A model generated the notes under the pieces. That model ran no database searches. It saw only the letters and a program-made list of their open reading frames with translations, and was not told the origin of the DNA. A stretch of DNA of 63,068 nt, filler included, from Candidatus Desantisbacteria bacterium CG1_02_49_89 (GTDB lineage: Bacteria; Desantisbacteria; UBA1551), in assembly GCA_001871075.1 (NCBI GenBank). It is 5 parts of 5 records of this genome, joined end to end, with 100 filler letters (N's around TTAATTAATTAA, not from the genome) between each part and the next. Parts side by side here need not be neighbours in the genome. Positions count along the whole stretch, not along the records: positions 57,140 to 63,068 come from MNUP01000025.1; 4 more parts are not named here. The stretch is one strand, 5' to 3'. Both the position numbers and the translations under genes were made by a program. Every line of letters begins with the position of its first letter. Within the stretch, counting starts at the first letter, position 1. Shown piece after piece: positions 1-63,068 of this stretch.

Positions 1-800
1 CTGTTGCAATGGGCGAAGCCTTTGTCGCAGCAGCAGACGATATCAATGCCCTGTACTGGAACCCATCCGGCCTGTCCCTATCAGAAGGGAAGCAGGTGAT
101 TTTTACCCACACAGAGTGGTTTCAGGCTATCAGATACGAATATCTTGCTTACTGCCAACCAGCTCTTGGTGGAACCATAGGCACAGGCATAACCTACCTG
201 TATATTACAGATATTGAAAGAAGGGACCTTGCAGGGGTTCTGCTTGGGACTACAGTGCCTGCAAATGACCTTGCAATAGCCGTATCTTACGCTAAAACGC
301 TCTCAGAGCGCCTGAACCTTGGCGGTACAGTCAAGATCATCAACCAGCAGTTGGATGACAAGTCCGCACTTGGCATAGCCGTAGACCTTGGCCTGCAATA
401 CAAGCTGAACAAGGAAGGTCTGATTTTAGGTTTTGCCCTGCAGAACATGGGCTACGAAGCCCCGTTCGTTTTGGAAGCAAGCAGTCTGCCTATGAACCTG
501 AAAGCAGGCATTGCCAATAAGACTGCTGACAACAAGCTTACTCTATCAGCTGACCTGAATTACTCCATCCTTGATTCTATCTGGGCTGTGGGAGCAGGTA
601 TTGAATACTGGGTCCATCCTGTGTTTGCCATAAGGGTAGGATACAAGTATAACAGCGCGATAAACAACACTCTGGGGGCGCTTGCCGGTCTGACCTGCGG
701 AGCCGGGTTCAAGATCGGTATATTGGGTATAGATTACGCGCTCGTTCCTTATGGCGACCTTGGATATAGCCATCGCATATCTTTGCTTGCAAAGTTCTAA
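1..800 (+). CDS. PorV/PorQ-family outer-membrane beta-barrel (5' truncated)
   Basis: MGEAFVAAADDINALYWNPSGL motif typical of FadL/PorV-like barrels; alternating beta-strands; C-terminal SHRISLLAKF aromatic end; frame open from window start. Confidence 0.8.
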   Translation, partial: VAMGEAFVAAADDINALYWNPSGLSLSEGKQVIFTHTEWFQAIRYEYLAYCQPALGGTIGTGITYLYITDIERRDLAGVLLGTTVPANDLAIAVSYAKTLSERLNLGGTVKIINQQLDDKSALGIAVDLGLQYKLNKEGLILGFALQNMGYEAPFVLEASSLPMNLKAGIANKTADNKLTLSADLNYSILDSIWAVGAGIEYWVHPVFAIRVGYKYNSAINNTLGALAGLTCGAGFKIGILGIDYALVPYGDLGYSHRISLLAKF

Positions 801-30581: not shown

Positions 30582-30626
30582 ACAAGACCTCCGATAACTG
30601 CGGTTAAGAGAGGCAGAGCAGAATCT

Positions 30627-31005: not shown

Positions 31006-31021
31006 TCTTAACGGGGACAAC

Positions 31022-38356: not shown

Positions 38357-38384
38357 AAAATAATTTGAAAGCAGCGGGGGTAAA

Positions 38385-45004: not shown

Positions 45005-45104
45005 NNNNNNNNNNNNNNNNNNNNNNNNNNNNNNNNNNNNNNNNNNNNTTAATTAATTAANNNNNNNNNNNNNNNNNNNNNNNNNNNNNNNNNNNNNNNN
45101 NNNN
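45005..45104. other. Artificial contig linker
   Basis: N run with TTAATTAATTAA. Confidence 0.98.
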
Positions 45105-45217
45105 AAACGTTAAATTTAACTTCCTTAAACCACGGATTAACACGAATTCCCACAGATTTTAACTCGGACTCTTTGACTCTAAATCTGCAATCTACAATGT
45201 CTGTAAACGGGGGCGTC

Positions 45218-48200
45218 ATGAAGAAATTGGTATTATTTTCAGTATTGGTTTTTACTGTGGTCTGTGGACTGCCCGCCCCGATGTCCATCGGGGCGAGGTC
45301 TCGCCCGCCAATATTCGTGGCGGGCGGATTGACTTCAGTTTGTTTTGCCGCAGACCAGGTGACAAACGGACTTGTGACAGTAGGCCCTGTTGTAAAAGAC
45401 GGGAAGACCCTGGGATTTTATCTTGAAAAGGCCGGAACAAAGATAAGCGAAGTGCTGTTCGGGTCAGTGGGCAACATAACCGCGGATTCCGTGAAACAGG
45501 ACGGGAACAAACTCGTGTTTACGGGTTTGAAGGCAAACCCCACTCCTGTGCTTGGCCCTGGTTCATACGTGAGCGTTGAACTGCTTACCAATGATGAATT
45601 CCCACGCGTCAGGTTCAGGCTGGAACTGGTAAAGTTTGAAAAAAGCCTTTGGGAAGGAGTTCTTGACAAGGTGCCTTTCCACTTTATGGTATGCAGCATG
45701 CCCGGGTCTGAGATATTTCACCAGAGGGGATGGCCGCTGGGAACTCCTGTTGTTGAGCCCTACGTGATACTGACTGACCCCGGCTCAGGCAGGACTATCG
45801 GCAGCAACTTTAACAGGAACTGGTCTTACGACCCGCCAATAGGCGCGTATCCTGTGCCGGTCGCGGGATTGTGGAACGTTAAGGAAAAGAAATACGTGGC
45901 TTACCTTTTCCAGGAAGCCCGCTCAACCGACAACACAGAGAAATCCATCTCGACCACTTACTGCTGGGAGTTCCAGACAGCAAAAGAGTTCTTCTGCCTT
46001 GCCTCAAAATACGCCAACGGTTACATGGACCTGAACTACCCCAAAGACGGGGATGTTCTTGAAAGCCATTTCAGGCTGATCTTTAACCTTAACCTGCCTT
46101 CTGAGGATGACCCCAACGCTTTCGTGCTCAACTATATCCACACAACATACGCGGACCTCATACCCGGGGTCCCGGAAATAAACGACATGAATTGGCTTCC
46201 CGGCAATCTCAGGTTCAAGACGCCGGGAAGGCCTTCTTTAAGCGGGCTTTTTCACACGGTCGGGGAAAAAGACCCGTTTATGAAGCCGGGTACTATTTTT
46301 AGTGACGGCGTAAGCTACATTGACCCTGGCATAGAATTCGCTTACGACACAGGGAAAAGCACAGCGACCCTTAACTCCTTCAAGAAAAAAATGGAATTCC
46401 TTATGGAAAAAGCGAAAAAATGGAAGGTGGGCGAGGATGAATGCGTTTTCTGGCAGCTGCCCATAGAGGGAGAATGGTGGCCTAATTTCGGCAAGGGCGT
46501 GGAAACCATGCACAACGTGTGGGGAGTGCAGGAAGCAAGGGCGTTCCTCGAGGTTTATAAATGCGAGAAAGACCCGAAATACCTGCCGTACGTTGACGGC
46601 ACGACCAGGTGGCTGAAACACATGCTCTACACCAGGAACTGCTATCCTGACGTTACCGCGGCAATGTTCGCGTGGTCAGGCGGGCCCATAGTTTCATACC
46701 TTCTGCGCTATTATTACGTTTTCAGGGACGCGCCTGACGTTGAGCACAAGGCTCTTGCAGATCTGGCTTATAAGCTTGCCCGCTCTTACGCGTACAGGTA
46801 CCTTCCGATCTGGACCACTGACAACGATAAGGCGGATAACCTGGATTCCGCGTTTTTCTGCGAGCCCAATGCAGGCGTGCCGTGGCTGGGCGCCGCGTGT
46901 TCCAACGAGGTCTGGATAAATGCGTACATGGCAGCGGTTGCCTATGTTGCCACAGGCGACCCGCTTTTCGGGTATTATTTGCGCGGCATGCTTGAAAGGT
47001 GGCACGACCTGTACAAGGACCTGGCCAAGCCAAAACCCCAGGCATACGGTTCGGCTGACCTTACGGAAAGGTTCGGGCTGTATGACGGAGCTCCGCAGGT
47101 AAAAGGGACAAGAGCGAATTACGGCGGGCTCTGGGGCGGGTTTGAAGCGATCTGCTACCCGCTTGCGGGATCAAAAATGAGGGTGCTGTGCGGGGAAAAG
47201 GCAGCCATGGCGTTTGACCAGGGCGGAGTTGAGACGAATTTCAGGGATTACAGGTATTACGGCAGCGGCAATTTTTCTTTTACAGTGGCAAGCACGCTTT
47301 CAGAGCCCTGCGCTGTCTCGATAACGTTTCCCTATTTCAAGCTCTCGGGAAAACCGGTGTATGTTATAAACAAGGGGCAGAAAAAAGCCCTTGTTGAGGA
47401 CACGGATTTTAAGGTATACAAATTTTCTCCGGACTCAATGTTTGTAGGGGGAGTTTCAAACGGGGACATTGTGGCTGTGGGAGACTGGAACCCGGATGTT
47501 AAGCCGCTCTCCTGTTCCGTGGGCAAGACGCACAAGGTGGAAAAGCAGATAACTATCGAAAGGGACGGGTATTCAGCGGCTAACATCGCGAAGTCCTGCA
47601 ACACGGGCATCAAGGAAGACTGGGGCGATCCAGGGACAATGGCAGGATACGTGCCCGGCATTACTTTCCTGTGGGGAGTGCCGTTTTACCTTGTGCCCGG
47701 CTCTGATAACGCGGGCAAGGTCGCTGTAAGGAATGCTGTCGCAAAAGTGGATATTTCCTGCCAGCGGCTCTTCTTCCTTGTTTCAAACCCCGGGCCTAAG
47801 GCTTTGCTTTCACTGACATTTGCTGACGGTTCCAAACAGGACCTATCGGTCAAGGATTCGATCTGCGCGATAACCGGCTGGCCCCCTTGTTTCAAGTGGC
47901 GCATTGACCTGATAACGGTTGCGGCAAAAGGCAAAGCGCTCAAGGAGGTAAAGGCAACTGATGTCAGCCTTTTCTCGGTTACAGGCACCCAGAGATCCGA
48001 CAAGGATATCGCGGAAGCCCTTTCGCTCATAGCCGCAGAGGCAAAAAAGCAGGACATCGAGGCTAAATTCGTGAAAAAACTTGAAGGTCTTGCAGGAGAG
48101 TTCAAAAGGCTTTCAAAGCGCATAGCGGTCATTCCCGTGCCCCAGTTCTCAATAGAGCAGGTGCCTGCCGGAGCGCTTATGCGCAAGGCAGGGGTGCTGG

Positions 48201-48871
48201 GCGATGTGGTAGTGCTCACGCCTGAACAGCTTATCTCAAAAGCCTTTAACGGCCAGAGGTATCCTGTGGCTGTTTACCTTGGCGGGGAACAGTATTACCA
48301 GACAGTCAAGGATGACGGAGATGCGGACCAGGCTATCATCAACTACCTGAAAACCGGGGGCCTGCTTGTCGTGATACCCAGCCCCAGCCAGCCTTTCCCG
48401 TTCTATTATAATGAAAAAGGAAAGCCTGTTGTGTCAGCCCCGAAGTTCGGCATGACGATATCCGGAAGCGGGGCTCTTGACAGGCAGGATACATTAAAAT
48501 ACAGCCGGGTAACAGGATGGGAAAAACCCCCTGTTTCAAATCTTACGTTCAGGGTTAACCCGAAGCAGGACATAATAAAAGGTCTGCTGCCAGAAACATT
48601 TGCCTGGATGGAAGATGGGGACCAGAGATGGAGGCCTATGATAGGCGCGGTGCCTGCGCCCGGCGTTTACACGCCTGTGGTAAGCCTTTACGATGCCGAT
48701 AACAACTGCTACGGTGAAGGGATAGCTTATCTGGAATATAAGTCTGACCCGGTTGCAGGCGGAAAGATCATTTACGCCTGGCCCAGCCTTGCGAACCACG
48801 AAAAATATTCCGGCACAATAATCCCGGCGCTTCTTGAATACGCGCTTAAGAGCATTAAGCTGGGCAACTGA
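45218..48871 (+). CDS. Large secreted protein (1217 aa), possibly carbohydrate-active
   Basis: Signal peptide (with palindrome insert), aromatic-rich helical mid-region, C-terminal GATase-like fold (YLGGEQY...YLKTGGLLVV); upstream of a DUF2961 gene; function inferred. Confidence 0.7.
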   Translation: MKKLVLFSVLVFTVVCGLPAPMSIGARSRPPIFVAGGLTSVCFAADQVTNGLVTVGPVVKDGKTLGFYLEKAGTKISEVLFGSVGNITADSVKQDGNKLVFTGLKANPTPVLGPGSYVSVELLTNDEFPRVRFRLELVKFEKSLWEGVLDKVPFHFMVCSMPGSEIFHQRGWPLGTPVVEPYVILTDPGSGRTIGSNFNRNWSYDPPIGAYPVPVAGLWNVKEKKYVAYLFQEARSTDNTEKSISTTYCWEFQTAKEFFCLASKYANGYMDLNYPKDGDVLESHFRLIFNLNLPSEDDPNAFVLNYIHTTYADLIPGVPEINDMNWLPGNLRFKTPGRPSLSGLFHTVGEKDPFMKPGTIFSDGVSYIDPGIEFAYDTGKSTATLNSFKKKMEFLMEKAKKWKVGEDECVFWQLPIEGEWWPNFGKGVETMHNVWGVQEARAFLEVYKCEKDPKYLPYVDGTTRWLKHMLYTRNCYPDVTAAMFAWSGGPIVSYLLRYYYVFRDAPDVEHKALADLAYKLARSYAYRYLPIWTTDNDKADNLDSAFFCEPNAGVPWLGAACSNEVWINAYMAAVAYVATGDPLFGYYLRGMLERWHDLYKDLAKPKPQAYGSADLTERFGLYDGAPQVKGTRANYGGLWGGFEAICYPLAGSKMRVLCGEKAAMAFDQGGVETNFRDYRYYGSGNFSFTVASTLSEPCAVSITFPYFKLSGKPVYVINKGQKKALVEDTDFKVYKFSPDSMFVGGVSNGDIVAVGDWNPDVKPLSCSVGKTHKVEKQITIERDGYSAANIAKSCNTGIKEDWGDPGTMAGYVPGITFLWGVPFYLVPGSDNAGKVAVRNAVAKVDISCQRLFFLVSNPGPKALLSLTFADGSKQDLSVKDSICAITGWPPCFKWRIDLITVAAKGKALKEVKATDVSLFSVTGTQRSDKDIAEALSLIAAEAKKQDIEAKFVKKLEGLAGEFKRLSKRIAVIPVPQFSIEQVPAGALMRKAGVLGDVVVLTPEQLISKAFNGQRYPVAVYLGGEQYYQTVKDDGDADQAIINYLKTGGLLVVIPSPSQPFPFYYNEKGKPVVSAPKFGMTISGSGALDRQDTLKYSRVTGWEKPPVSNLTFRVNPKQDIIKGLLPETFAWMEDGDQRWRPMIGAVPAPGVYTPVVSLYDADNNCYGEGIAYLEYKSDPVAGGKIIYAWPSLANHEKYSGTIIPALLEYALKSIKLGN
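45272..45331. repeat. In-frame 60-nt double-hairpin insert in a signal peptide
   Basis: Hairpins 45274-45295 and 45302-45326; the second recurs at 43844-43864. Confidence 0.8.
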
Positions 48872-48983
48872 TAAATAACGTTCATCGTGCGTCGTTCTTC
48901 GTTCATCGTTTGAACATATGGCTGTTTCTGCGATGCACGACCCGAAAGGGCGAGGTACGATGCACGAATAATGGGAGGCATGT

Positions 48984-50045: not shown

Positions 50046-50241
50046 AACAGTTAAAAGTTGAAAGTTGAACGTTGAAAGTTGAAAACGCTGAAGGCTGAAT
50101 GCTGGATGCTAAATGTAAAATATAAAATCTGTGACAATCTGTGTTAATCTGTGTCTAATTTTATTTCGTGATTTCGTGGAAATCTTAATCCGTATGAATT
50201 CGCGTTATCTAATCCGTTTGCATCCGCAAAAGGAGTGGTAT

Positions 50242-51216
50242 ATGCTGAAAGTGGCTATGCTGAGTTTCTGGCACGTGCACGCTGAAGGCTACGCCAAGCA
50301 GTTAAGGGAAAGGAACGACAACAAGATCACCTGCATGTGGGACGAGATACCGCAGCGCGGCAAGGACTGGGCGGGAAAACTCGGTATTGATCTTGAGCCT
50401 GACCTGAGCAAGCTGCTGAAAAGGGATGACGTTGACGCGGTTGTAATAAATTCGCCTACAAACCTGCACGCGAAAATTATGATTGCCGCAGCGAAAGCCG
50501 GGAAGCACATTTTCACGGAAAAAGTAATGGCGCTTACCGTCAGGGAGTGCAAAGAGATCTCGGAAGCGGTCAAAAAAGCAGGCGTGAAATTCTGCGTTTC
50601 ATTCCCCCAGCTTACAGTGCCTTACGTGCGGTTCGCGAAAAAGGCGATAGACGAAAAGATCATAGGTGACGTGACGCTTGCCAGGTTCAGGGCAGCGCAC
50701 GCCGGAGCGTCCGCAGGATGGCTTCCGCCTCATTTCTTTGACCCTGTGCAGACAGGCGGAGGGGCGATGATGGACCTTGGCGCGCACCCGATGTATACGC
50801 TCAGGTACCTGCTGGGAAAGCCCAAAAGCATTAATTCCATATTCACTGTCCTGACAGGAAAGCAGGTTGAGGACAATTCCGTGTGCGCCATTGAATTTGA
50901 GAACAAGGCGATAGGCGTATCGGAAGCGTCATTCGTGTCAGGCGGGGGAATGATAGGCCTTGAAGTTTACGGCACAAAAGGCTGCCTGATAGTTGAATCA
51001 TCCGCTTCAGGCCCTGTCATCAAAATGGTCCCTGCTGAGCTTGAAAAACAGATCTCCCTGCCCCCTGCCCTGCCAAGGCCGATCGATATCTGGGTGGACG
51101 GGATTCTAAAGGGAACCGAAATTCCGTTCGGCACAGAACAGGGCACCCAGCTAACCGAACTTATGGAAGCCGCTTATAAATCGTTCCGCGAAAAGCGCCA
51201 GGTCTCCATTAAATAA
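50242..51216 (+). CDS. Gfo/Idh/MocA oxidoreductase
   Basis: AGKHIFTEK, GGGAMMDLGAH, VEDN; ATG after AGGAG. Confidence 0.92.
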   Translation: MLKVAMLSFWHVHAEGYAKQLRERNDNKITCMWDEIPQRGKDWAGKLGIDLEPDLSKLLKRDDVDAVVINSPTNLHAKIMIAAAKAGKHIFTEKVMALTVRECKEISEAVKKAGVKFCVSFPQLTVPYVRFAKKAIDEKIIGDVTLARFRAAHAGASAGWLPPHFFDPVQTGGGAMMDLGAHPMYTLRYLLGKPKSINSIFTVLTGKQVEDNSVCAIEFENKAIGVSEASFVSGGGMIGLEVYGTKGCLIVESSASGPVIKMVPAELEKQISLPPALPRPIDIWVDGILKGTEIPFGTEQGTQLTELMEAAYKSFREKRQVSIK

Positions 51217-51319
51217 CGCACATAGCACATGGCATATTGCATATGGCGAAAAAAATAAGATCATCGTGCGCCGCAAAAGACAAATTAACAGGGAACTTAA
51301 GAGAACTTAAAAAAGGTAC

Positions 51320-51419
51320 NNNNNNNNNNNNNNNNNNNNNNNNNNNNNNNNNNNNNNNNNNNNTTAATTAATTAANNNNNNNNNNNNNNNNNNNNNNNNN
51401 NNNNNNNNNNNNNNNNNNN
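51320..51419. other. Artificial contig linker
   Basis: N run with TTAATTAATTAA. Confidence 0.98.
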
Positions 51420-54400
51420 GCAGGAAGCGAGCGCTCCTGTGACCGTAATGACAGGCGACCCGGATCTTGAATCCGTGAAATAAACTGCTGTCTCCCCGTC
51501 TATAAAGTTCAGCGTGACTGAATCCGACCACGGCCCTGATGCGGAAGCGCTGAGAAAACCCAGAGCTGAGCTCATTGCCACGGCGCAGGTCCCGGTGTAG
51601 CTTATGTCCTTTACACCGCTTGCGAACTGCGCCTGTATGCAAATAGATTCGGATGTCCCGCCCGCGGTAAAAGACCTGGCCGGCGTGGCAATCCCGAATT
51701 TTGAGCCGCTTATGAATTCAACCGTGGGAGTCCTTTGAAGGCGCACACAGTCAAACCAGGCTGTGCCCACCCCCCAGTTCTGGTTCCTGAAAAGAATGCC
51801 GTTCGCTTCCGCAGGCGCTGTAACAGAACCGCTGATCAGCGTCCACGGATTGCTGCCGCTTATTGAACCGCCGGTGACCTCGCCGATGGCAGCTGTGTCT
51901 TCCACGTTCTTGAACCAGACTATCCTTATGCCTGCTACACCGGAGGAAAGCTCGGTCCTGGCAAACTGCGAAACCAAATAAGACACGTCCGGTGTAGCCG
52001 TATATACCGGATAAGTCGGCCTGTATGGTTTAACCCATTGCGCCTGCAGGTAATTGTCATTATTGCTTAGGCAGGAATGGACCATCGCCCTTGCGCCGTC
52101 TGCGACGTTTTCGGTCCAGGACCAGGACCCGGTGTGCTGACCGGGATTGTCCCCTGTGAAATCCCACCAGGACGCTGTTGTTTCGCCTGAAAAACTCTGT
52201 TCAAAAGACGGGTTGTTCAGCATGTTCTCAGTGACCGTCAGGCCCGCGCAGGCCGCTGTGATCGTGCAAGCGCCCATATATTGAGAGCTAACCGTAAAAG
52301 TGCTCTGGCCGTTCGCGTCTGTTACCTGCGGGTTCGAAGGCCCTACAGAATCGGAATTCCCGCGCGACGTAATAAGCGTGACGGTTTCCCCCGGAACGGG
52401 ATTGCCGAACGTGTCAAAAATATTTGCCAAAACTGTTACTGCGTCAACCCCATCTGCCTGTATCTTGACCTTGCTCATCCTCAGGTATGACGCAAACGCG
52501 TTCACCGACGGCAAAACCACGGTCTCCGTCTGCGTGTCAGCGTGTAACGTGTAACGTGTAACGGTTATGACGGGATTTCCGGCCTGTCCGTCCTTGTAGT
52601 AAAGAACTGCCGCTCCCGACATGAACGTGACCTCGGTTGTGTCAGCCCAGGCATTTTTATCTGCCGAGAACCGGCCTGCAGGCGAACTTGTTAACAAAGC
52701 GCAGGTACTGTCGAAAGTCAGGTCCCTTGCTCCGGTCTCGTCCTGCGCCTGGACCGTAATACCCGGAGAAGGATTGTTCAGGGAAGCCGTAAACGGCGGG
52801 GAAACGATCTTTATGAAAACATTGCGCACTGTTATGGTTTCAACCTGGGAACCTTCGGCCATCCCTTCCCTGTAAACGGATATCGCCGGGTTACCTGTCT
52901 CTCTGTCAGTGTAATAAAAAACGCCGTAACCCGAACTCAGCGTGATAACAGTGGTGTCAGCCCAGTTTATACCGCTGGCAGAGAACCGGCCTTCCTGCGA
53001 ACTCGTGAACAGGCACACAGTACCATTGAAAGAAGTGTCTTTTGCCCCAGTGTAATCCCTTGCCTCTATTTCTATTGCCGGTGATATGTCCTTCTGCCTT
53101 ATGCTGAATTGTCCGGACAGGATCACTAGTGAACCTGTAGGTGAAATTATCGTTTCTGCCTGGCTACCTGCGATAAGCGATTCGCGATACGCGGTTATTA
53201 CGGGGTTGCCGGTCTCTGAATCCACGTAGTAAAAAACCGCCGCGCCGCTGCTCAGCGTTATTTCGGTAGTATCAGACCAGGGAGCAAAGGTAGCCGAGAA
53301 CCTTCCGCCCGGAGAACTCGTGACCAGCGCCGCGGTGCCGCTGAACGAAGCATCCAGCGCGCCTGTATCATCAACCGCCTGCACGGTGATCGCAGTCGAA
53401 GTACTATTCTGGGTTATGCTGAAAGGCAGGGATGTGATCTTAAGCGCGGCAACCGGGTGCTGGTCGTATTTTATCGTGAAGAAATCGTAGCTCAGGCCGT
53501 TTGAGGCATAGCCGAACATATAAACGTTCCCCGCCCCTGCAGGTGATCCCTCAACCACAGCGTCAAACCCTTTGTCTGTAGAACCCGCGTCATAAACCGC
53601 CTGCCACACAGAATCTCCGGACGTGTTAAGCTTTATCAAAAAGAAATCCGCGTCGTTGACCTGCCCTGTTAGATAGGCGTTTCCTTCAGGGTCAGCGTCA
53701 ATCCCATAACCGTAGTCCCCACCCCCGGTTGAATAGATCTTTACCCAAAGAGAATTCCCGCTTGAATCGTATTTAATGGCAACTGCGTCGTTATCAGTTC
53801 CGTTAAAAGAATATCCGCTAACGTAAAAACAGCCTGCGGGGTCCACCGCCGTCTTGTACCCGAAATCGCTCGGACCTCCATCAAACGTGCGCGCCCAGAG
53901 CATGTCCCCGTTGGGATCGAATTTCACAGTGAGTATATCGTAAGCTGCGAAATCTGGAGTCGAGTAACCGTTCACGCATACGCTGCCTGAGCTGTCAACC
54001 GCTATACCGAATCCATAATCTTCATTCCCGCTGTCATACGTTTTTTGCCAGATCGTGTCACCTGAAGAAGTATATTTCAAAATAAGGTAATCAGCTGTAG
54101 CTATATATGACATACCTGCGACATAAACATTTCCTGTGTCATCAACAGTGACAGCGAAGCTGTAATCAGAATTGCCGCTGTCATATGTTTTTTGCCAGGC
54201 TATATTTCCGTCTGGATCATATTTAATAAGAAGAATGTCGCTGTAATTGACTGTTCCTGATACATAGACGCTGCGCCCGCTGAATCCATGGCGGCATCAA
54301 TATAAATGTCGTCAAACCCGCTGTCGTATATTTTCTGCCATAATGTTTCTCCGTTCGAGTTGTATTTTACGGTAAGGAAATCGTTATCCGCACCGTTAAA

Positions 54401-54616
54401 AAAACAGCCTGCAACGCAGAAATTGCCCGTATCATCAAGGTCTATGCCGCCGAAATAGCTGTTATCGTTCCCGGCAGGGAACATCTGCGTGGACAGGACC
54501 GTTGCCGGGTTCTCCCCAAAACAGTGGGAAGTGAGGAACAAGAAGCAAAAAACAAACAATATCGGTAATATATTGTAGGGCAAGGCTTTAGCCTTGCAAA
54601 ATATAGATTTTTTCAT
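51420..54616 (-). pseudogene. Large surface protein (SBBP-type propeller, Ig-like repeats, Big_1, CBM-like), frameshifted near 54273-54276, 3' truncated
   Basis: Repeats D..G..YV.G...D....KY...G...W; removing one GC joins ORF 54200-54622 to ORF 51372-54113 (DSAGSVYVSGT); four GRFSA...W.DTT...GNPVI repeats; ADGVDAVTV...D.FGNPV. Confidence 0.8.
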
Positions 54617-54811
54617 TTCCACCTCTAATTTAACTACATTAAATCATATTTTAAACATAAAAGAACCAAGAAAAGGATATTTTCTATAGTTATTAACTAT
54701 ATCTTTTCTAACAGGATTCTCAAATATATAACAGGAAATTTTTAAGCCTGATACGTTTCTTAAGGATTAATTTATCCATAATGATTCAGCAAGGCTAAAG
54801 CCTTGCCCTAC
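54575..54811. repeat. Inverted pair of identical 23-bp GTAG REP-like elements (REPIN-like)
   Basis: GTAGGGCAAGGCTTTAGCCTTGC at 54575-54597 and exact reverse complement at 54789-54811. Confidence 0.9.
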
Positions 54812-54822
54812 TGAATACCGTT

Positions 54823-57039
54823 TTACTGTTTTAAGGCGGCCGGCGGCGGCTGCTCTGAAAACCTTATATAGTCTAACTCAATAACCGCTCCAGGCAGGTT
54901 ATAGTTCGGGTCAAGGCGCAGCCTTAATATTTCTCCGCGCCAGGATTTCACGTCACCCACCCTGAGCAGGTACTCGTGGAACTGGGTATCGGACGACGTG
55001 CTGAAAGAAAGGCTGTTCCTCTCGCTTTCCGGGCTTGAAGCAGTGGTCCAGAATAGCTGGGCTGAATTCCCCTTGTCTATTTTCATTTTTATCACCGCGA
55101 ACCTGTATTTGGAGGCATCTATGTTTGCCGCGGCAGCGAATGCCGGGTCCCCGCCTGTCACTGCCGCTTTCATCACGCCCCTCTTTACGCTGAAATCAGC
55201 AAGCCCCATCATCGGGCCCCATCCTTCCCCGTTGTCGTCTTTGTCGAATTCCCAGTTCGTCATGGGCTTCACTTCAACCCATTGCTTCACTTCCAGGCCT
55301 ATATCCCTGGGCGTAACATCAATATGCCCTTTCTGATCTTCCGCAAAAACCTCTCTTATCGCATCGAGGTAGCCGAACCCGAACTCCCTGTGCGGCTCTA
55401 TGTAGTCCCCTTCCCCGAATTCATTCCACGACTCAACCAGGACAACCCTGCTTTTGTCTTCCCCGACAGGATGCTTATCCGCGAAACTCCTTGCAAACTC
55501 AAGCATTTTTTTGAATTTTGCGGGATTCTTCCCCGTGCGCACAAGCGCGCTCTCCCCTGCCCAGGGCCTGGCGTCCCATCCCGGGTCTGCGACCGCTATA
55601 TAATCCAGGAACTTGTACCCCGCGATCTCCTCCCATATTTCCCTGTAACCGCTTATCGCCGACTCATACGGGGGGCGGTTCCCATCCTCAGCGACTGAAC
55701 CGGCAGCGGGATAGTTGTAACCTGTTATCGCGTCGTATCCCTCCTCCTGCAACTGCTTCGCCTTATCCATGCCAGGGTACGCGCAGCCTGCCAGGTAAAG
55801 CCCGTCAAAACCATTTTCCCTGCAAAGATTCTCCATCTTTTCAAAAGCATCCTTTGTCGCGGCAACGCCCATATCCTCCGTGATGCGGTCCACGCTGAAA
55901 ATAATGACAACCGGCTTGCCGTCGATCTTCAGGTATTCGGGCAGCTTGAAATAATTGTCGATCCAGTATTTCGTAACGTTCAGGAGATCCTGTTCGGACG
56001 AGCTCCCTTTCGGGTTGTGGTTCGCCCACAGCAGGCAGAATTTCAGGTATTTCCTGTACATCGAATTGAAATAACCGTCGTGCAGCGCGTGTTCAAGAGA
56101 CCTTGCTCCCCTGTCCCAGTACCAGTCATAGGCAAAGAACGATATACCGTGCTCAACAGCCCATTTTATCTGCCAGCTGGCTATGTCCGGCTCGCCTTCC
56201 TGGTACCAGCCCAGCACCGGCTTCCTCTCGGGAAAAGGCCTTATCGCGTCCCACCCCCTGGTAGTTCCCTGTTTCCAGCCCGGGAAATAATACGCGCCGA
56301 TAAGGTATTTTGTTTTCGCCGCGACCGGCTCAGGCGGGTAAACCCTGCCCCCTGTCATAACCGGAGACACGGAAATTTTCTTGGAGAACGCAAGGTTCAC
56401 CGAAGCCGACACCGGAGCGAAATTATCCCCGGTGATATCCACTTTCGCACTGCCTTCGGAAGGGTCTGAACTGATCACTATCCACTGAAAACTTTGTTTT
56501 TTCTCCAGGACCGGCATTGCCGCCGCGCCCTGTGACCCCATCATCTGCATTCCCTGCGGCAGCGAAACCCTTAGACTAACGTTCCGCGCCGGTTCCCCTC
56601 CCGCGTTCTCAAGCACGCAGACAAGGCTTGCAAACTGTCCCGCGGGATTTATGACATTGTCAAACGCGAATTCCCTGACAATTATTTCCGCAGGGCCTTT
56701 CGGCTTTTCACCCGCCCTGAAAGATTTAAACTCGATTTTTGCCCCTTTTGCGTTTGAAGGGCGCACCGCGATCCCTTCAACCGTGCCTTCCCACCCGGGA
56801 TCTGAGAACATATCCATCACGTATGCATGGAACTGGTTGTCCGCTATAACCGGAAATTCATGCCTTGCGACGCCGGACTTTCCTTTTACGAACCACAGTA
56901 TTTCGCCTGCTGTGCCCTTGTCAGCCTTCATGACCAACGTGATCCAGCTCAGGTCCTCCGCTTTGAATTCCGTGCGCGGAGCCATTGCAAGCGGCTCCTT
57001 TTCCAGGGCATTAACCTTAAGGGTCTCCTTTCCCGGCTC
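54823..57039 (-). CDS. GH99-like/WbsX-type glycoside hydrolase with accessory domains (5' truncated)
   Basis: GAYYFPGW, PVLGWY, HGISFFAYDWYW, FCLLWANH, YLKIDGKP, GWDARPW, SWNEFGEG.YIEP; frame open to the gap. Confidence 0.88.
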   Translation of the reverse strand, partial: EPGKETLKVNALEKEPLAMAPRTEFKAEDLSWITLVMKADKGTAGEILWFVKGKSGVARHEFPVIADNQFHAYVMDMFSDPGWEGTVEGIAVRPSNAKGAKIEFKSFRAGEKPKGPAEIIVREFAFDNVINPAGQFASLVCVLENAGGEPARNVSLRVSLPQGMQMMGSQGAAAMPVLEKKQSFQWIVISSDPSEGSAKVDITGDNFAPVSASVNLAFSKKISVSPVMTGGRVYPPEPVAAKTKYLIGAYYFPGWKQGTTRGWDAIRPFPERKPVLGWYQEGEPDIASWQIKWAVEHGISFFAYDWYWDRGARSLEHALHDGYFNSMYRKYLKFCLLWANHNPKGSSSEQDLLNVTKYWIDNYFKLPEYLKIDGKPVVIIFSVDRITEDMGVAATKDAFEKMENLCRENGFDGLYLAGCAYPGMDKAKQLQEEGYDAITGYNYPAAGSVAEDGNRPPYESAISGYREIWEEIAGYKFLDYIAVADPGWDARPWAGESALVRTGKNPAKFKKMLEFARSFADKHPVGEDKSRVVLVESWNEFGEGDYIEPHREFGFGYLDAIREVFAEDQKGHIDVTPRDIGLEVKQWVEVKPMTNWEFDKDDNGEGWGPMMGLADFSVKRGVMKAAVTGGDPAFAAAANIDASKYRFAVIKMKIDKGNSAQLFWTTASSPESERNSLSFSTSSDTQFHEYLLRVGDVKSWRGEILRLRLDPNYNLPGAVIELDYIRFSEQPPPAALKQ

Positions 57040-57139
57040 NNNNNNNNNNNNNNNNNNNNNNNNNNNNNNNNNNNNNNNNNNNNTTAATTAATTAANNNNN
57101 NNNNNNNNNNNNNNNNNNNNNNNNNNNNNNNNNNNNNNN
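57040..57139. other. Artificial contig linker
   Basis: N run with TTAATTAATTAA. Confidence 0.98.
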
Positions 57140-57439
57140 CAGAACGCGCGTTATGTTTATCCCGCTCGCTTTTATAGCCGTCATTTCATTATCCGCCGAA
57201 AGCCTGCTGATGCTGAGCAGGCACGCCAGGAGCACCGCCATCGGGATGGTGAGCAGGAGCATTGACGGAAGGGAGAATATCAGCAGTTTAAAAACAGAGA
57301 TCACGCCTACACCCTTATTAATCACCAGGTTGGTAAGGTATACCATCTTGCTTGCTATAAAAATGAACGTGAAAATGGCTATGCCGAAAAGAAACGGCGG
57401 CACGTATTCCCTAATAGTGTAATTTCTCAATATATTCAT
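57140..57439 (-). CDS. lptF: LPS export permease LptF (3' truncated)
   Basis: Y.IRE..PPF..G..IFTFI, TIPMAVL...L....RLSADNE.TAIKASG. Confidence 0.9.
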
Positions 57440-57541
57440 ATTTTTCGAAATTTGATTACACCGATTTCAAAAAAGTGATTACACCGATTGTAAACAATGG
57501 TTATTATGGTAATAAATTTTTACCTTAATCTGTGTAATCAT

Positions 57542-57569
57542 ATTATACTCAGATTTGTTTTTTTTTCAA
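57542..57569 (-). promoter_or_regulatory. Probable lptF promoter
   Basis: TTGAAA (57569-57564) N16 TATAAT (57547-57542). Confidence 0.55.
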
Positions 57570-57595
57570 GTAAATATGAAAACGGGGATTGTTTC

Positions 57596-60500
57596 ATGAA
57601 ATTTAAAGTGTTAATAATTTTTATCCTGTTTTTGCTGATCACTGTCCACTGTCCACTGTCCACTGTCTGTCGCGCCGCCGACACCCAGACCCCCGGCCTG
57701 GGGGACCAGATAGTCAGGGAAGTGCAGTCCCGCATAGCTGCTTCCGGGAGGAAGATGTGGGAAGTGAAATACACGTGGTCTCACTACCTGGATCCCCGCA
57801 TAAACAGCGATTTCGAGAACAGTTTCGCGATGTACCAGGAGCTGCAGTTCCGCCTCAGCGGGAAGGTTGGTGACAGGATCACGGTGAATGTCGAATACGA
57901 CGATACCCAGCAGAAGAAACAGAAAATATCGGTCATTTACACCGGAGAGGGAAGGGAAGCCACCGGGATACAGGAAGTAAACTTCGGCGACCAGGTCCTT
58001 TCGCTTCCGGGCACCGAGTTCGTCGCGTATAACAAGCAGCTTTTTGGGTTGAGCGTGAAGGGCCAGTACGAGAAATTCAGGTATTATTTCGTCGGCAGTC
58101 AGACAAAAGGTTATTCGGAGACCAGGGAATTCAGGGGGAAGAGTGAGTTCAAGGTTGTGGACATAAGGGATATCTCTTACTACACGAGGAAGTATTACAT
58201 ACTCAGGCACATAAATCAGGGCAGGGAAAAGGTTTACATAGACGACAGGAACGCCTCAAATAACACCGCCAACACATTCTATTTTCAGGGTTTAGACATG
58301 GTTACAAACCCGGTTTCACCTGACACAATTTCCGGTTACTTCGACCCGGCTTTTTCCGGAGTCGACTATGTCATAGATTACGGAACAGCCGCATCCGACA
58401 GCACCGTGATATCATTTTCAAAGGGCATAGACCAGAATTTCGTCCTGCTTGTTTATGACATGGACCTTAACAATACGTTCGCCATAAAAGACGATCTCGG
58501 CACTGAGACAAGGACTTCCAGGTACGAACTGAAGAACTACTATTACCTTGGGTACCGCAAGATCATACAGAACGACCCCAATTTCATCCTGGAGGTCTGG
58601 GATTCGGATAAGGCAAGGCATCCGGTTTACCTGTGGCCGAATACCGCTCCGGCAGGCGAATCATACACCGCGAAGATAGATTACGATTTCGGTATAATAC
58701 ATTTCGTGGATTCAACCGGAAGGGACGTTCGGCCGTTCGCCCCCGAAGTCTACCTGCCTTCAAACCCGGTGACGACCCGCGAGATACACGCGGAATTTAA
58801 ATATTCCATACAGGCGCTGATACTGCGCCCCTACCTTGTTGAGGGAAGCGAGCGCGTGTACCTGAACGGCAGCCTTCTGAGGAAGGATTCGGATTACACG
58901 ATAGACTACGATAGCGGCTGGCTTTCATTCCTGCGCGAGGAAATGATCACAGAGGACAGCGTTATCAAGGTGGACTACGAATACATGCCGTTCGGCGGCC
59001 AGTACGTGGAAACCCTTTTAGGTATGAGGGGCGAGTTGCCGCTTTCTCCGGATTTTTCCATCGGCACAACATACCTGTACAGCGGCACGCCTTCGCCCAA
59101 CGAAATACCCAGCGTAAGGTCCACGCCTAAAAGCCACCAGGTAGTGGACGTTGACATGCAGCTTGACCCCAAATCGCTGATCTCAAGGATTATCCCGGGC
59201 CTGGAAAAGGTCCCGTTTTCCACAAGCATGAATTTTGAGGGCGCGTACAGCTGGAAAGACCCGAATACTTTCAAGAAGGCCATGGTGGACGACATGGAAG
59301 GCGCAAAACTGCAGGTCAGCGTGCCGATGACAGATACCAACTCATGGAGGATCTCTTCGGCTCCAACAGGCGAATCACTCGGGCTGAGGGGACTTATAGG
59401 CGGGGGGGTGTTCAATCTCAGGGGAGCTGAAGAGGGCCATGACCCTAACCTGACCACCCCGAAGTCCATAGTGCTGGATTATTCCCTTGCGGACAGCAAC
59501 TGGGTCGCGATCTGCTACCCGATCTCAAAATATTCGCAGGACTACTCTCAGTATAACAATATTGAGTTCTGGGTCAAGGATCCCGTACCGAATGTGAAGG
59601 TCTTCTTTGAGCTGGGAATGATAAGCGAGGATGTTGACGGCAGGGGAGGTTTTGACACCGATGTCTATTCCGGTTCGGCAAAGCTGTGGAGCAAGGGCCA
59701 GCCCAAAACAGAGGATACCAAAATGGCGGACGGCAAGCTCAATCCGGATGAAGACGCCGGCTGGACGTTCTACAGTCCGGGCGGAAGCTCTGCCCAGATA
59801 GGGGCGAATAACGGCAGGCTGGACGGAGAGGACCTTGACGGGGACGGGCAGCTCAACGCATTCAACCAGAAAATACACACGTTGGGAGGGTATTTTGCGG
59901 AATTCGATTTTTCCGGATATAAGATAGGCGAATCCGGCAGCTGGAAGCTTTACAGGATCCCGTTCTCGCGCCAGGTTTCCGGAGATACTGACTGGGCCAT
60001 GGTGAAGAATATACGGATCTGGGTAAAGAACGAATCCGGCGGCGCGAAGTCCGGGTCGCTTCAGATGGACAGCCTTTCAGTGGTAGGCAGCAAGTGGACC
60101 AACGTTGCCGTGGGAGGGCTTGCCGGCATTAATACCTTTTCCGCTGAATCGAGGAACTCGGTTGACAATATCAGTGGGGACAGCCCGTCCTATTATAAAG
60201 ACCCCAGGTATTACGTGCCGGATTCGTCCTACGACGAGGATGAGGACGGCCTGAACGATTATTTCGAAGAGCTGCACCCCAACCTTGAGGAAGACCTGCG
60301 CCTGGTCGTCGCTTCCCAGATACCCAAGGAACAGTCAATGGCGCTGGTCTACCGGTTCAGCGAGGAGTGCACGGGTTCCGTGACCCAGAAATTCACAACA
60401 GCGCTGAATTTTACCGACTACAAAAGGATGAAATTCTGGCTTTTCGTGACTTCCGGCAGTTCCGGCGGCACGTTCTTCATTAGGTTCGGCATGGACGACA

Positions 60501-62476
60501 ACAACTACTACCAGCAGAATTTCGCCCTGTCTTCGGAAAAAGACTGGGAGATCAAATCAGTGGAGCTGGGTGACGTTACAACGCTGGTTAGGTCCGCGAC
60601 AATGACCGTGACAGAGCCGCTGGACATACTGTATAATATCAAACAGATAACGCTGGGTGTGTATGACACCAACACCTTCGGCAGGAAAAAGGAGATCTGG
60701 ATAAACGAGCTGTATCTGGACGAGTCCGGGATAAAGGAGGGTTACGCCCTAAAGGCCGGGCTTAACGTGAATATTGACAACGGATTCGTGGGGTTGGGCG
60801 CAAGTTACAGGAAGCTCTCACACACGTTTGAAACCCTGGGCGTTGCGTCAGCCGCGGAGGACAACGAATCTTTCGGAGGCAGCTGGAGCGTTCTGCTATC
60901 AAGGCTTATACCGTCCGGCTGGGGGATCAGCCTGCCTTATTCAGGCGCATGGTCACAGACGCGCACCCAGCTTGACCCCAATACCGCAAAGGATGTCCCG
61001 CGGTACAGGCTGGGCCTCAGGAATGTGATCGCGCAGAGCCATTTTCTTAATTTCGGGCAGACATATTTGCCTTCGATCACCGGCAGTTATACCCACGCGA
61101 AGATAGACAGCGATTTTAAAGGTTCTGAGGCAAAAGAAATACAGCAGAGCTATTCGGCAAGCATGATTTACAGCTATGCCTTCCCGCGCTGGTTGTGGTA
61201 CGCGCTTTCCGTTAAACCTTCCTATTCCTATTCGAGTTCTTTGCGCGAGGTAAGCATTGGCCCGGCTTTTGTGGATACGAACAATACATGCGATCATGCA
61301 AGCGATTTCCTTGTTTCAATGGGTTTTCAGCCTGTCGCGCAGGTAAACATCATACCGCAGTATAAGCTGCGAAACACGGGCCAGCAGGCAAGCGTCAACG
61401 CGCCACTGGGGGATATGAGGCCTTTGAGCAGGAACCAGAACCTCGGTATTTCAACTTCCACGACGTATTTTAAGGGTGTAAGCCCGTCCGCGTCTCTCAG
61501 CGAGGTCATCGACGAGAATTATTTCATAAGCGTCACGGATACTAAAAAGAACGCAAGCGGCAGCGCGACCGTTGATTTTAACGCAAGCGTTTCACCCAGA
61601 GAATGGTTCAGCGTAATGAAATTCGTTAATTTCTATTACAGCTTCCGGATGAACGCGAACGTTTCGTATGAAAGCCTTGATAAAACAATAGAGCCCGGGG
61701 ATATAAACATGGACATCTGGCAGGCCCTTGTGAACCTGAGAGACACGTTTACGTTCACCCTGATGCGGAAGGCGTCATCCAACCAGAAAAACCACACGCT
61801 CAGCGCTAATTTTTACCTGTGGGACCCGCTCAGCGCGAGCGCGAATATGTCTTTCGGCACGGACGAAAGCCAGAACCAGGGTTCTTTCAACACTGTCAAT
61901 AACCTGGGTTACGGCGGCAGCGCCCGCCTGGACATTAACCAGGCGTTCCCGGAACTGAAGAAATCCATGGAATCTTCGAACCTTATGGGCAGTTTCAACC
62001 ACAGGATCTCGGAAACCCTGGGTTCGTCAAAAACCTCCACCATGACACCCAACTTCAACTGGCAGGTAAGGTGGACCTCAGCCGTAAACCAGAATTATTC
62101 ATTTAACTGGAACATGGAGACCACCCAGACCGGCGCATACACCAGGTTCACAAACACCATGGCTCCTTCTGTGAGGACGGATTATACCGCCGATTTCCCG
62201 CTTGTCCTCGCTATACCGTTTTTCAAGGAATGGAAGCTTGCGAACCGCTTTGACCTCAACAATACCACGAGCCATGAATTCAGGAGCGTGGAAGAAGACG
62301 TATTAAAGCTGGAATCGACAAATAAGTTTTCGACCACCACCGGGCTTTCGTATAACGCGGCTGAGAACCTCCGCCTTACGTTCGGCCACACTTTTATCTG
62401 GTACGCGAACGCCCAGGTCCCGACCCAGGATTATATTTCGCACAGCATAGCGTTCCGCGGCGAGATCCGCTTTTAG
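57596..62476 (+). CDS. sprA: SprA/Sov-like large outer-membrane beta-barrel (T9SS translocon homologue), 1626 aa
   Basis: LSGKVGDRITVNVEYDD, ELKNYYYLG, GSERVYLNG..L....DYTIDYDSG, GMISEDVDG, VKNIRIW, IWINELYL recall SprA blocks; long amphipathic-strand C-terminus ending RGEIRF. Confidence 0.78.
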   Translation: MKFKVLIIFILFLLITVHCPLSTVCRAADTQTPGLGDQIVREVQSRIAASGRKMWEVKYTWSHYLDPRINSDFENSFAMYQELQFRLSGKVGDRITVNVEYDDTQQKKQKISVIYTGEGREATGIQEVNFGDQVLSLPGTEFVAYNKQLFGLSVKGQYEKFRYYFVGSQTKGYSETREFRGKSEFKVVDIRDISYYTRKYYILRHINQGREKVYIDDRNASNNTANTFYFQGLDMVTNPVSPDTISGYFDPAFSGVDYVIDYGTAASDSTVISFSKGIDQNFVLLVYDMDLNNTFAIKDDLGTETRTSRYELKNYYYLGYRKIIQNDPNFILEVWDSDKARHPVYLWPNTAPAGESYTAKIDYDFGIIHFVDSTGRDVRPFAPEVYLPSNPVTTREIHAEFKYSIQALILRPYLVEGSERVYLNGSLLRKDSDYTIDYDSGWLSFLREEMITEDSVIKVDYEYMPFGGQYVETLLGMRGELPLSPDFSIGTTYLYSGTPSPNEIPSVRSTPKSHQVVDVDMQLDPKSLISRIIPGLEKVPFSTSMNFEGAYSWKDPNTFKKAMVDDMEGAKLQVSVPMTDTNSWRISSAPTGESLGLRGLIGGGVFNLRGAEEGHDPNLTTPKSIVLDYSLADSNWVAICYPISKYSQDYSQYNNIEFWVKDPVPNVKVFFELGMISEDVDGRGGFDTDVYSGSAKLWSKGQPKTEDTKMADGKLNPDEDAGWTFYSPGGSSAQIGANNGRLDGEDLDGDGQLNAFNQKIHTLGGYFAEFDFSGYKIGESGSWKLYRIPFSRQVSGDTDWAMVKNIRIWVKNESGGAKSGSLQMDSLSVVGSKWTNVAVGGLAGINTFSAESRNSVDNISGDSPSYYKDPRYYVPDSSYDEDEDGLNDYFEELHPNLEEDLRLVVASQIPKEQSMALVYRFSEECTGSVTQKFTTALNFTDYKRMKFWLFVTSGSSGGTFFIRFGMDDNNYYQQNFALSSEKDWEIKSVELGDVTTLVRSATMTVTEPLDILYNIKQITLGVYDTNTFGRKKEIWINELYLDESGIKEGYALKAGLNVNIDNGFVGLGASYRKLSHTFETLGVASAAEDNESFGGSWSVLLSRLIPSGWGISLPYSGAWSQTRTQLDPNTAKDVPRYRLGLRNVIAQSHFLNFGQTYLPSITGSYTHAKIDSDFKGSEAKEIQQSYSASMIYSYAFPRWLWYALSVKPSYSYSSSLREVSIGPAFVDTNNTCDHASDFLVSMGFQPVAQVNIIPQYKLRNTGQQASVNAPLGDMRPLSRNQNLGISTSTTYFKGVSPSASLSEVIDENYFISVTDTKKNASGSATVDFNASVSPREWFSVMKFVNFYYSFRMNANVSYESLDKTIEPGDINMDIWQALVNLRDTFTFTLMRKASSNQKNHTLSANFYLWDPLSASANMSFGTDESQNQGSFNTVNNLGYGGSARLDINQAFPELKKSMESSNLMGSFNHRISETLGSSKTSTMTPNFNWQVRWTSAVNQNYSFNWNMETTQTGAYTRFTNTMAPSVRTDYTADFPLVLAIPFFKEWKLANRFDLNNTTSHEFRSVEEDVLKLESTNKFSTTTGLSYNAAENLRLTFGHTFIWYANAQVPTQDYISHSIAFRGEIRF
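57640..57667 (+). repeat. Perfect (CACTGTC)4 inside the sprA-like signal peptide
   Basis: Four exact copies encoding TVHCPLSTV. Confidence 0.92.
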
Positions 62477-62481
62477 AGGCA

Positions 62482-62627
62482 GTCATGAGTCATGTGTCAT
62501 GAGTCATGTGTTTAGCTCGTAACATCGTGCATCGTTCATCGTGCATCGTAAATAATTCTCTGTGTCTCCGTGCCTCCGTGGTTAATTTTATAATCACCGT
62601 AATCGCAGTTAAAAATCACCGTAATCA
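62482..62627. repeat. Mosaic spacer: GTCATGW, CATCGTG, CTCTGTG and AATCACCGT arrays
   Basis: Four array families in sequence; three of them also occur elsewhere in the window. Confidence 0.85.
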
Positions 62628-62637
62628 GGATTTTATA

Positions 62638-63068
62638 GTGAAGTTCGGGATATGCAACGAAATTTTCAAGGGCTGGGAATGGGCCAGGGTGGCTGGATAC
62701 GTTTCATCGCTGGGTTACGCCGGTATTGAGCTTGCCCCGTTTATTTTTGCCGGATCGGTTGAACAGGTAAGCGCCGGCAAAAGGAAAGAGATCGCGGATA
62801 TTGCCGGTGCGAACGGCCTTGAAATAACCGGCCTTCACTGGCTGCTGGCGTCCCCGAAGGGCTTGAGCCTGAGTTCTCCGGATAGGTCGATCCGTGAAAG
62901 ATCAACTGAATACCTTAAAGCCCTGGCGCGCTTCTGCGGCGATGTAGGCGGGAAAGTAATGGTGTTCGGCTCTCCGAAGGCAAGGGATATCCCTCCTTCA
63001 TCCGGTTTTGGCGAAACATACGAACGCGTTAAGGATTGTTTCTTTTCAGTCCTTCCGGTCCTGAAAGA
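62638..63068 (+). CDS. Sugar phosphate isomerase/epimerase (3' truncated)
   Basis: GTG start; MKFGICNEIF...GY.GIELAPF...GLHWLL...GGKVMVFGSP; missing from the ORF track because it has no stop. Confidence 0.85.
   Translation, partial: MKFGICNEIFKGWEWARVAGYVSSLGYAGIELAPFIFAGSVEQVSAGKRKEIADIAGANGLEITGLHWLLASPKGLSLSSPDRSIRERSTEYLKALARFCGDVGGKVMVFGSPKARDIPPSSGFGETYERVKDCFFSVLPVLK

Follow-up and report, generated by a model that had tools for sequence, protein, structure and literature searches.

A compact SprA/Sov-like protein encoded in a Candidatus Desantisbacteria genome, most likely the outer-membrane translocon of a type IX-like export route

The stretch of DNA analysed here (the window, 63,068 nucleotides, filler included) was drawn from the genome of Candidatus Desantisbacteria bacterium CG1_02_49_89 (assembly GCA_001871075.1) and is a pseudomolecule of five metagenome-assembled genome (MAG) contigs placed end to end (1-22610, 22711-45004, 45105-51319, 51420-57039 and 57140-63068). 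Its last contig carries, at 57596..62476 on the plus strand, an intact open reading frame (ORF) of 1626 aa with a signal peptide start and a terminal Phe, whose product resembles SprA/Sov, the outer-membrane translocon of type IX secretion systems (T9SS). A first-pass annotation of the same DNA had read this gene as a compact SprA-like translocon and as a possible reduced or ancestral T9SS-like export route outside Bacteroidota. We compared the protein with SprA by sequence profile and predicted fold, placed the host lineage and surveyed the surroundings of related genes, and we regard a T9SS-like translocon as the most likely identity of the gene product. The features of this contig and of the joiner before it are as follows.

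57040..57139, no strand: artificial joiner, N44-TTAATTAATTAA-N44, not biology; the joiner is also found at 22611-22710, 45005-45104 and 51320-51419
57140..57439, minus strand: lptF/lptG-type lipopolysaccharide (LPS) export permease, 5' fragment of 100 codons, the gene being cut by the contig end (PF03739, TIGR04407)
57440..57595, no strand: 156-nt intergenic gap separating the divergent lptF and SprA-like genes (from the sequence)
57596..62476, plus strand: putative SprA/Sov-like outer-membrane translocon gene, 1626 aa plus stop (TIGR04189, PDB 6h3i_A, hhalign, Foldseek top match 8gl8_A)
57596..57679, plus strand: probable Sec signal peptide, residues 1-28, MKFKVLIIFILFLL...VCRAA (read by eye from the translation)
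57731..58168, plus strand: N-terminal barrel block, residues ~46-191 (8-9 long strands in the model of residues 28-1200; aligns to SprA 160-296)
58169..60637, plus strand: cap and extra-barrel domains, residues ~192-1014 (collinear alignment to the SprA cap region)
60638..62473, plus strand: C-terminal barrel block, residues ~1015-1626, ending in Phe (26-27 long beta-strands by DSSP; pLDDT, the predicted local distance difference test, mostly 80-95 across the block)

The longest ORF spanning the site, 57497..62476(+), would encode 1659 aa, and the alternative start at 57596 gives the protein of 1626 aa. The start at 57596 (MKFKV..., MKFKVLIIFILFLL...) is preferred because it opens directly on a signal peptide, because its M1 is invariant across an alignment of 15 sequences (A1, the SprA-like protein and 14 homologues) and because the database contains a 1626-aa protein that is 100% identical. 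The probable signal peptide, called by inspection of the translation, begins with a charged N-end, continues into a hydrophobic core and closes with a cleavage motif of small residues. At its other end the protein closes with ...FRGEIRF, and with the 26-27 long strands before it this agrees with the barrel-type C-terminus described by the first-pass annotation. A gene for a xylose-isomerase-like TIM-barrel protein follows, starting at 62506 and running past the window end.

On the upstream side, the lptF fragment scored 89.7 bits against LptF_LptG (PF03739; profile positions 2-95 of 353) and 80.2 bits against TIGR04407, and its minus-strand ATG lies at 57439. The gap of 156 nt and the divergent direction, both claimed before, are thus borne out, although what the window holds of lptF is a 5' fragment cut at 57140. 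Since the window is a pseudomolecule, genes that run into a joiner have to be read as cut genes and not as short genes; the ORFs so affected are 51372..54113(-), the 115-aa lptF ORF and probably 45173..48871(+). Neither promoter-like sites (8 versus 6.4 +/- 2.6 in shuffles, with promoter-like hexamers present on both strands of the intergenic region) nor terminator-like sites (3 versus 6.3 +/- 2.7) exceeded the level of shuffled sequence on this contig.

SprA (Flavobacterium johnsoniae Fjoh_1653) and Sov (Porphyromonas gingivalis) are the T9SS outer-membrane translocons represented by TIGR04189, PF14349 and the PDB entries 6H3I, 6H3J, 8GL6 and 8GL8. The NCBIfam model of this family, TIGR04189, matched the window protein with E 1.2e-50 (171.9 bits) over five stretches in the expected order, so that the succession of SprA-like blocks first noticed in the sequence is real. 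A profile built from alignment A1 and searched against PDB sequences retrieved 6h3i_A (E 1e-56) and matched only two distinct sequences, both of them F. johnsoniae SprA. Profile-profile comparison with hhalign against seven Bacteroidia SprA sequences aligned 1232 columns at ~18% identity (probability 100, E 4.7e-79), and under the greedy setting the two proteins were collinear throughout (1-1626 against 1-2350). All these values lie well outside what chance would give. The part best conserved with SprA is the N-terminal barrel block, with SGRK..., KVGDRITVNVEYDDT and FVAYNKQLFG.

The predicted fold points in the same direction. The full chain exceeds our folding limit of 1200 aa, and it was modelled with AlphaFold2 from a 38-row alignment as two overlapping parts, residues 427-1626 (mean pLDDT 78.9) and residues 28-1200 (74.8). 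In Foldseek searches of the PDB, four SprA chains occupied ranks 1-4 for both partial models, with E values of 5.5e-46 to 4.8e-36 for the first and 2.4e-52 to 3.4e-41 for the second and query-normalised TM-scores (TMq) of 0.44-0.50; the best match other than SprA reached E 4e-06 and 3.8e-08, respectively. By DSSP the two models together hold 8-9 long strands at residues ~46-191 and 26-27 at ~1015-1624, or an estimated ~34-37 in all; the barrel of SprA is reported to have 36 strands (PMC10994853). Like SprA, the protein has an N-terminal barrel block of ~150 aa, a cap and then a long C-terminal barrel region in end-to-end collinearity, and SprA is by a wide margin its best fold match. We conclude from sequence profile and predicted fold that it is a true SprA homologue.

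The homologue is ~730 aa shorter than Bacteroidia SprA (1626 versus 2347-2491 aa), and its segments, measured in a 50-sequence alignment divided at conserved landmarks, compare as follows.

N-terminal barrel block: ~150 aa here; ~150 aa in all 50 aligned family members
Cap: 818 aa here; 998-1199 aa in Bacteroidia SprA
C-terminal barrel region: 609 aa here; 905-1012 aa in Bacteroidia SprA
Stretch before the first conserved block: 50 aa here and 50-67 aa in the Desantisbacteria clade, signal peptide included; 142-166 aa in seven Bacteroidia SprA (286 aa in one)

In the greedy hhalign comparison, the segments present in SprA alone comprise one of 88 aa at the N-terminus and eleven of 20-42 aa spread over the chain. 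Some 90-100 residues of the SkpA/SprE-binding tail of SprA are missing here. Members of the family from Elusimicrobiota have ~100-150 aa before the GRK block, where the ORF starts are possibly over-extended. The compactness would thus lie in a shorter N-terminal tail, cap and loops, whereas the barrel, with an estimated ~34-37 strands in the models, is not obviously reduced; the term "reduced", as the first-pass annotation used it, holds for the former and not clearly for the latter.

The missing tail bears on how such a translocon could be driven. In F. johnsoniae, SprA's extended N terminus is enclosed in a trimer of SkpA and makes contact with SprE, its deletion impairs transport as much as deletion of SkpA, and substrate release in the canonical system requires the motor and SprE/SkpA (PMC10994853). 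Because the tail that binds SkpA and SprE is mostly absent here, coupling to an energy source, if one exists, probably differs from that of Bacteroidota SprA, as judged by analogy with the Flavobacterium system.

The host belongs to a lineage outside Bacteroidota. The housekeeping genes dnaA-dnaN-gyrB, rnpA-yidC-jag, LysC and ApgM were confirmed in the window. The argument that the housekeeping genes do not look Bacteroidota-like is weakened by the fact that jag, ApgM, LysC and dnaA-dnaN-gyrB, like the PorV-like and FlgD_ig genes discussed below, lie on other contigs than the SprA-like gene; the joiners separate these contigs, and the housekeeping genes are therefore tied to it by binning only. 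Independent best matches nevertheless agree. GyrB, on contig piece 2, is 84% identical to that of Candidatus Desantisbacteria bacterium CG1_02_38_46, and the next tier, at 66-70% identity, carries Elusimicrobia, Omnitrophica and archaeal labels. For the SprA-like protein itself, the best genome locus is L001, on a contig of the MAG of that same CG1_02_38_46 (56% identity, residues 22-652). The LptF encoded in L001, in the identical divergent arrangement, shares 69% identity with the LptF fragment of the window. NCBI places CG1_02_38_46 among the Bacteria candidate phyla as Ca. Desantisiibacteriota, and Desantisbacteria have been described as a sibling of Elusimicrobia and Omnitrophica (bioRxiv 10.1101/765248). 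In a FastTree phylogeny of 50 family members, the SprA-like protein falls into a fully supported clade of five rows together with the CG1_02_38_46 protein; this clade stands beside a 27-row Elusimicrobiota clade, with mid-length PF14349 proteins and Bacteroidia SprA outside. The tree raised long-branch warnings and is relied on here for the well-supported Desantisbacteria clade alone. By best named matches and NCBI lineage, the host is not a member of Bacteroidota or of the wider Fibrobacteres-Chlorobi-Bacteroidetes (FCB) group, in agreement with the first-pass annotation. That annotation had named two findings that would overturn it, a lack of structural similarity to SprA and an FCB genome; both were checked, and neither was observed.

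Relatives of the protein are numerous. A genome scan found at least 268 loci encoding them among 318 pattern matches, and same-length relatives share 49-64% identity with the window protein. In their sources the family members are named "hypothetical protein", and the ESM Atlas likewise returned only clusters of "hypothetical protein" look-alikes, in which 12-20% of members carry SprA_N. Neighbourhoods were analysed for the best 80 of the 268 loci, in which 951 ORFs were called and clustered; these loci come mostly from Elusimicrobiota MAGs, some being labelled only "bacterium" or "Clostridia bacterium". The Elusimicrobiota proteins (1680-1830 aa) share 25-34% identity with the window protein, the same divergent lptFG and a sister-like position in the tree; they differ from it in being 60-200 aa longer, with a longer N-terminal region that may again reflect over-extended ORF starts. 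MAGs labelled "Clostridia bacterium" (L012, L013, L015, L018, L072 and L078) combine the lptFG/SprA-like cluster with PorV-like barrels and proteases bearing a C-terminal domain (CTD). Their labels are probably wrong, or else the bins represent a lineage near Elusimicrobiota, as their genes point to a diderm.

A divergent LptF/LptG gene stands beside the SprA-like gene in 64 of the 72 loci with at least 1.2 kb of upstream sequence, in two copies in 54 of them and at a median gap of 130 nt; some of the eight loci without it look like artefacts of the ORF caller in GC-rich genomes. On the other side, a ComF-like gene follows the SprA-like gene in 40 of the 80 loci. In the loci closest to the window protein, the upstream side additionally holds PorV-like barrels (11 of the 80) and M6/S8 proteases with a C-terminal Ig-like domain (10 of the 80). 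The PorV_fam model (NF033709, cut-off 90) was exceeded in L004 (120.1 bits) and L063 (203.3 bits), and the type A sorting domain model TIGR04183 (cut-off 23) by an S8 protease of the Desantisbacteria locus L001 (29.7), by L016 (23.3) and by L063:15037-16368 (29.6). Thirteen C-terminal domains of the related loci have in common NPF, WDGKN, SGIY and GKLAVIK-type motifs, including a near-terminal lysine. Matches to the PorU and PorZ models in these loci are confined to the level of the C-terminal domain and lie inside the CTD proteases.

Carrier and cargo genes are often adjacent, and in L004, L063 and L073 the carriers sit directly beside individual cargo genes. This layout resembles what we take to be the arrangement of dedicated carriers of type B substrates more than that of a single general PorV. 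When the PorV-like barrel of L063 was co-folded with the CTD of the adjoining protease, the pair scored 0.91 and the best of three controls 0.01. Among solved complexes, 116 of 157 attain that mark, as against 2 of 215 among mismatched pairs; since our own alignments were used, these counts are only approximate. The L063 runs showed at least 91% contact agreement, with a partner pLDDT of at least 84. The modelling supports binding between carrier and CTD but falls short of proof, since the high score may reflect likeness to the solved PorV-CTD complexes (8gl6, 8gl8). The L063 PorV-like proteins at L063:1934-3424 and L063:13208-15037 have C-terminal extensions of ~180-290 aa beyond the barrel, PorV_fam (326 positions) covering residues 30-316.

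A protein of the carrier type is also present in the window, as the first-pass annotation had proposed for the bin.

3..800, plus strand, on another contig: PorV/PorQ-family outer-membrane barrel, candidate carrier, its N-terminus cut by the window start (NF033709)

It scored 176 bits against NF033709 PorV_fam, well over the cut-off of 90, and is 37% identical to a PorV-like gene product encoded beside the lptFG/SprA-like cluster of L063. With the type A domains of TIGR04183, this places matches to both the carrier and the signal model above cut-off in the bin or in related loci. The equivalog cut-offs were not reached, the window protein scoring 112.8 against 220 for PorQ and 80 against 250 for PorV. 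The FlgD-Ig protein that had been counted as part of the export route does not fit that role: its FlgD_ig domain is internal (Pfam, residues 55-115 of 309), and we rejected it as CTD-type cargo.

We therefore regard the gene product, a giant single-chain beta-barrel of the SprA/Sov family encoded in a Desantisbacteria genome, as the likely outer-membrane translocon of a T9SS-like export route. This reading draws on the homology and fold match to SprA, on the non-FCB host, on the PorV-family protein in the bin, and on the PorV-family genes and type A CTD proteases that stand beside orthologues in related genomes. By analogy with SprA, Sec-exported proteins with a type A C-terminal Ig-like domain would enter the capped barrel from the periplasm, cargo would then be bound by a carrier barrel of the PorV/PorQ family through its loops, and cargo and carrier would leave the barrel sideways together. 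The direction and mode of transport, the docking of the carrier and the cargo of this particular genome are all inferred from that analogy.

Several observations weigh against this reading. The score of 171.9 bits does not reach the curated TIGR04189 cut-off of 200 (three relatives, at 112-165 bits, are also under it), and Pfam assigned no family to the protein at E<=0.01, SprA_N (PF14349) included; together these results describe a divergent relative whose function may have drifted. The N-terminal tail through which SprA binds SkpA and SprE is absent by alignment. The strongest conserved neighbour of the gene is lptFG, not a T9SS gene, and the PorV-like gene of the bin lies on a different contig. 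A profile made from the 13 CTDs found a C-terminal T9SS domain in none of the 523 ORF segments of the window, its only match there being the internal one in the FlgD_ig protein at 35367-36296 (E 7.7e-06), so that the shared C-terminal domain whose search had been suggested is found in the related loci and not in the window. The CTD protease of L078, at 21.3, falls just under the TIGR04183 cut-off. Models for GldK/L/M/N, PorU, PorZ, SprE/PorW, SprT and Skp matched none of the 44 main ORFs of the window (63 kb of the bin) and, in the NCBIfam search, no full-length protein among 95 ORFs (17 + 78) in the flanks of related loci. The earlier statement that the window holds no motor gene accordingly stands.

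The absence of motor genes says little, since they need not adjoin sprA and only 63 kb of the bin was seen. In Bacteroidota the motor operon is not known to adjoin sprA. GldK and PorK have an FGE-sulfatase (formylglycine-generating enzyme) fold, and a ~906-aa protein with a C-terminal domain of this type is encoded on the minus strand ~6-9 kb downstream of the SprA-like gene in 12 Elusimicrobiota loci (L002, L005, L009 and L010 among them). We considered it as a GldK analogue and dropped it, as it has no NCBIfam match and is part of the conserved gene-order block of one lineage.

Of the other explanations, the one that survives best is that of an ordinary, complete T9SS whose remaining parts (GldKLMN/PorKLMN, PorU/PorZ and SprE/PorW) lie elsewhere in the genome, in which case the protein would simply be a SprA orthologue of smaller size and the system in no way "minimal". 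We hold this possible, though on the unlikely side. The lack of a motor on a 5.9-kb contig and in 10-kb flanks is uninformative in this respect, and SprA, PorV-family and type A CTD parts were all found in the lineage. Against it speaks the short stretch before the first barrel block, 50-67 residues in the Desantisbacteria clade as opposed to 142-166 (286 once) in Bacteroidia SprA, given that deleting the N-terminus in F. johnsoniae equals deletion of SkpA in its effect (PMC10994853). Nor was any motor, ring or sortase model matched in the 44 window and 95 flank ORFs. T9SS is described as a system of Bacteroidota and the FCB group (PMC11285876, PMC10994853), and a review states that its genes are absent outside the FCB phyla (PMC11285876), a statement hard to square with complete systems being widespread in Elusimicrobiota. 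Our literature search, which extended neither to subscription journals nor to bioRxiv supplements, found no report of SprA or T9SS in Elusimicrobiota or Desantisbacteria.

A second explanation, which we judge improbable, is a barrel turned over to outer-membrane biogenesis, for instance to the delivery of LPS, lipid or lipoprotein to the surface together with LptFG, instead of serving CTD proteins as a secretion pore. The divergent lptF/lptG, kept in 64 of 72 loci across proteins that are only 25-30% identical to each other, would fit such a role, as would the retention of the family in Endomicrobium MAGs and the score below the SprA equivalog cut-off. In common with LptD/LptE, the protein is a large barrel of the outer membrane with a genetic link to the Lpt pathway. 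The similarity to LptDE is otherwise that of barrels in general (Foldseek E 4.6e-04 and TMq 0.16, versus 5.5e-46 for SprA), no LptD-type N-terminal domain was detected (Pfam, NCBIfam), and the searches returned no OstA/LptA-like or lipid-transfer domain (Pfam none, NCBIfam SprA only). A role as an LptD replacement was rated low on account of this generic fold similarity. Re-purposing also sits poorly with PorV-family genes and CTD proteases that share the neighbourhoods, and with a cap region, the part of SprA in contact with the CTD, that is retained collinearly.

It could also be that binning brought in the contig from an FCB organism, of Bacteroidota or otherwise, whose T9SS is canonical, as the contig is attached by an artificial linker and visible over only 5.9 kb; this is very improbable, as its two informative genes best match a Desantisbacteria MAG at 56% and 69% with the same gene order, Bacteroidia SprA is only 16-19% identical in the alignment and forms an outgroup clade in the tree, and the contig GC of 0.506 compares with 0.475-0.516 in the other pieces. 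Least credible of all is a decaying, non-functional SprA remnant, suggested by the ~730 aa lost and the score under the family cut-off, in view of 1626 uninterrupted codons with signal peptide and terminal Phe, same-length relatives at 49-64% identity, 268 related loci with conserved synteny, deletions that are many, small and scattered over a collinear alignment rather than truncations, and AlphaFold2 models that are confident in the barrel region.

The other contigs hold some further features of interest. A probable replication origin lies at 28800-31021. Between dnaN and dnaA, six DnaA-box-like sites (at most one mismatch) are clustered at 29046-29215, and a further two are found at 30627-30658, upstream of dnaA. 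In total the window has 29 such sites, versus 12.5 +/- 3.8 in shuffles, and the cumulative GC skew reaches its lowest point near 30 kb. The region 22711-24768 next to gyrB, with which contig piece 2 begins, is low in GC (0.373 at 22001-24000) and may be a mobile or defence-related insertion; it encodes a protein of 555 aa that combines Schlafen AlbA_2 with HATPase_c_4. A cluster of five genes at 35367-42002(+) likely encodes envelope proteins, none with a T9SS model match: the 309-aa protein with the internal FlgD_ig domain, a 344-aa protein of no family, a lipoprotein-like protein in which TPR repeats accompany a CsgG/LpoB-like N-terminal part, a 364-aa protein of no family, and an 834-aa protein that starts with CarboxypepD_reg. 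Finally, the ORF at 45173-48871(+), of 1232 aa, matched neither Pfam nor NCBIfam models; it is situated at the start of a contig piece and perhaps lacks its N-terminus.

The conservation of the divergent lptFG arrangement suggests that the SprA-like gene is co-regulated with LPS export. T9SS cargo is anchored on LPS in Porphyromonas, and anchoring of cargo on LPS is one possible reason for the pairing. More speculatively, and on balance doubtfully, Desantisbacteria and Elusimicrobiota might retain an ancient, stripped-down type 9-like route, made up of a compact SprA barrel, cargo-adjacent PorV-type carriers and type A signals, without the GldLM/GldKN motor-ring and the SkpA/SprE "dish" and coupled to LPS export via lptFG, which would be the core from which the T9SS of the FCB group was elaborated.

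A conserved SprA homologue together with PorV-type carriers and type A signals in two phyla outside the FCB group would extend the range over which this export mechanism is known. Structural work would also gain a natural "minimal" translocon, ~30% smaller and without the SkpA-binding tail, and the energisation of the translocon would become testable by comparison. The near-universal pairing with lptFG would be a new lead linking type 9-like export to LPS transport.

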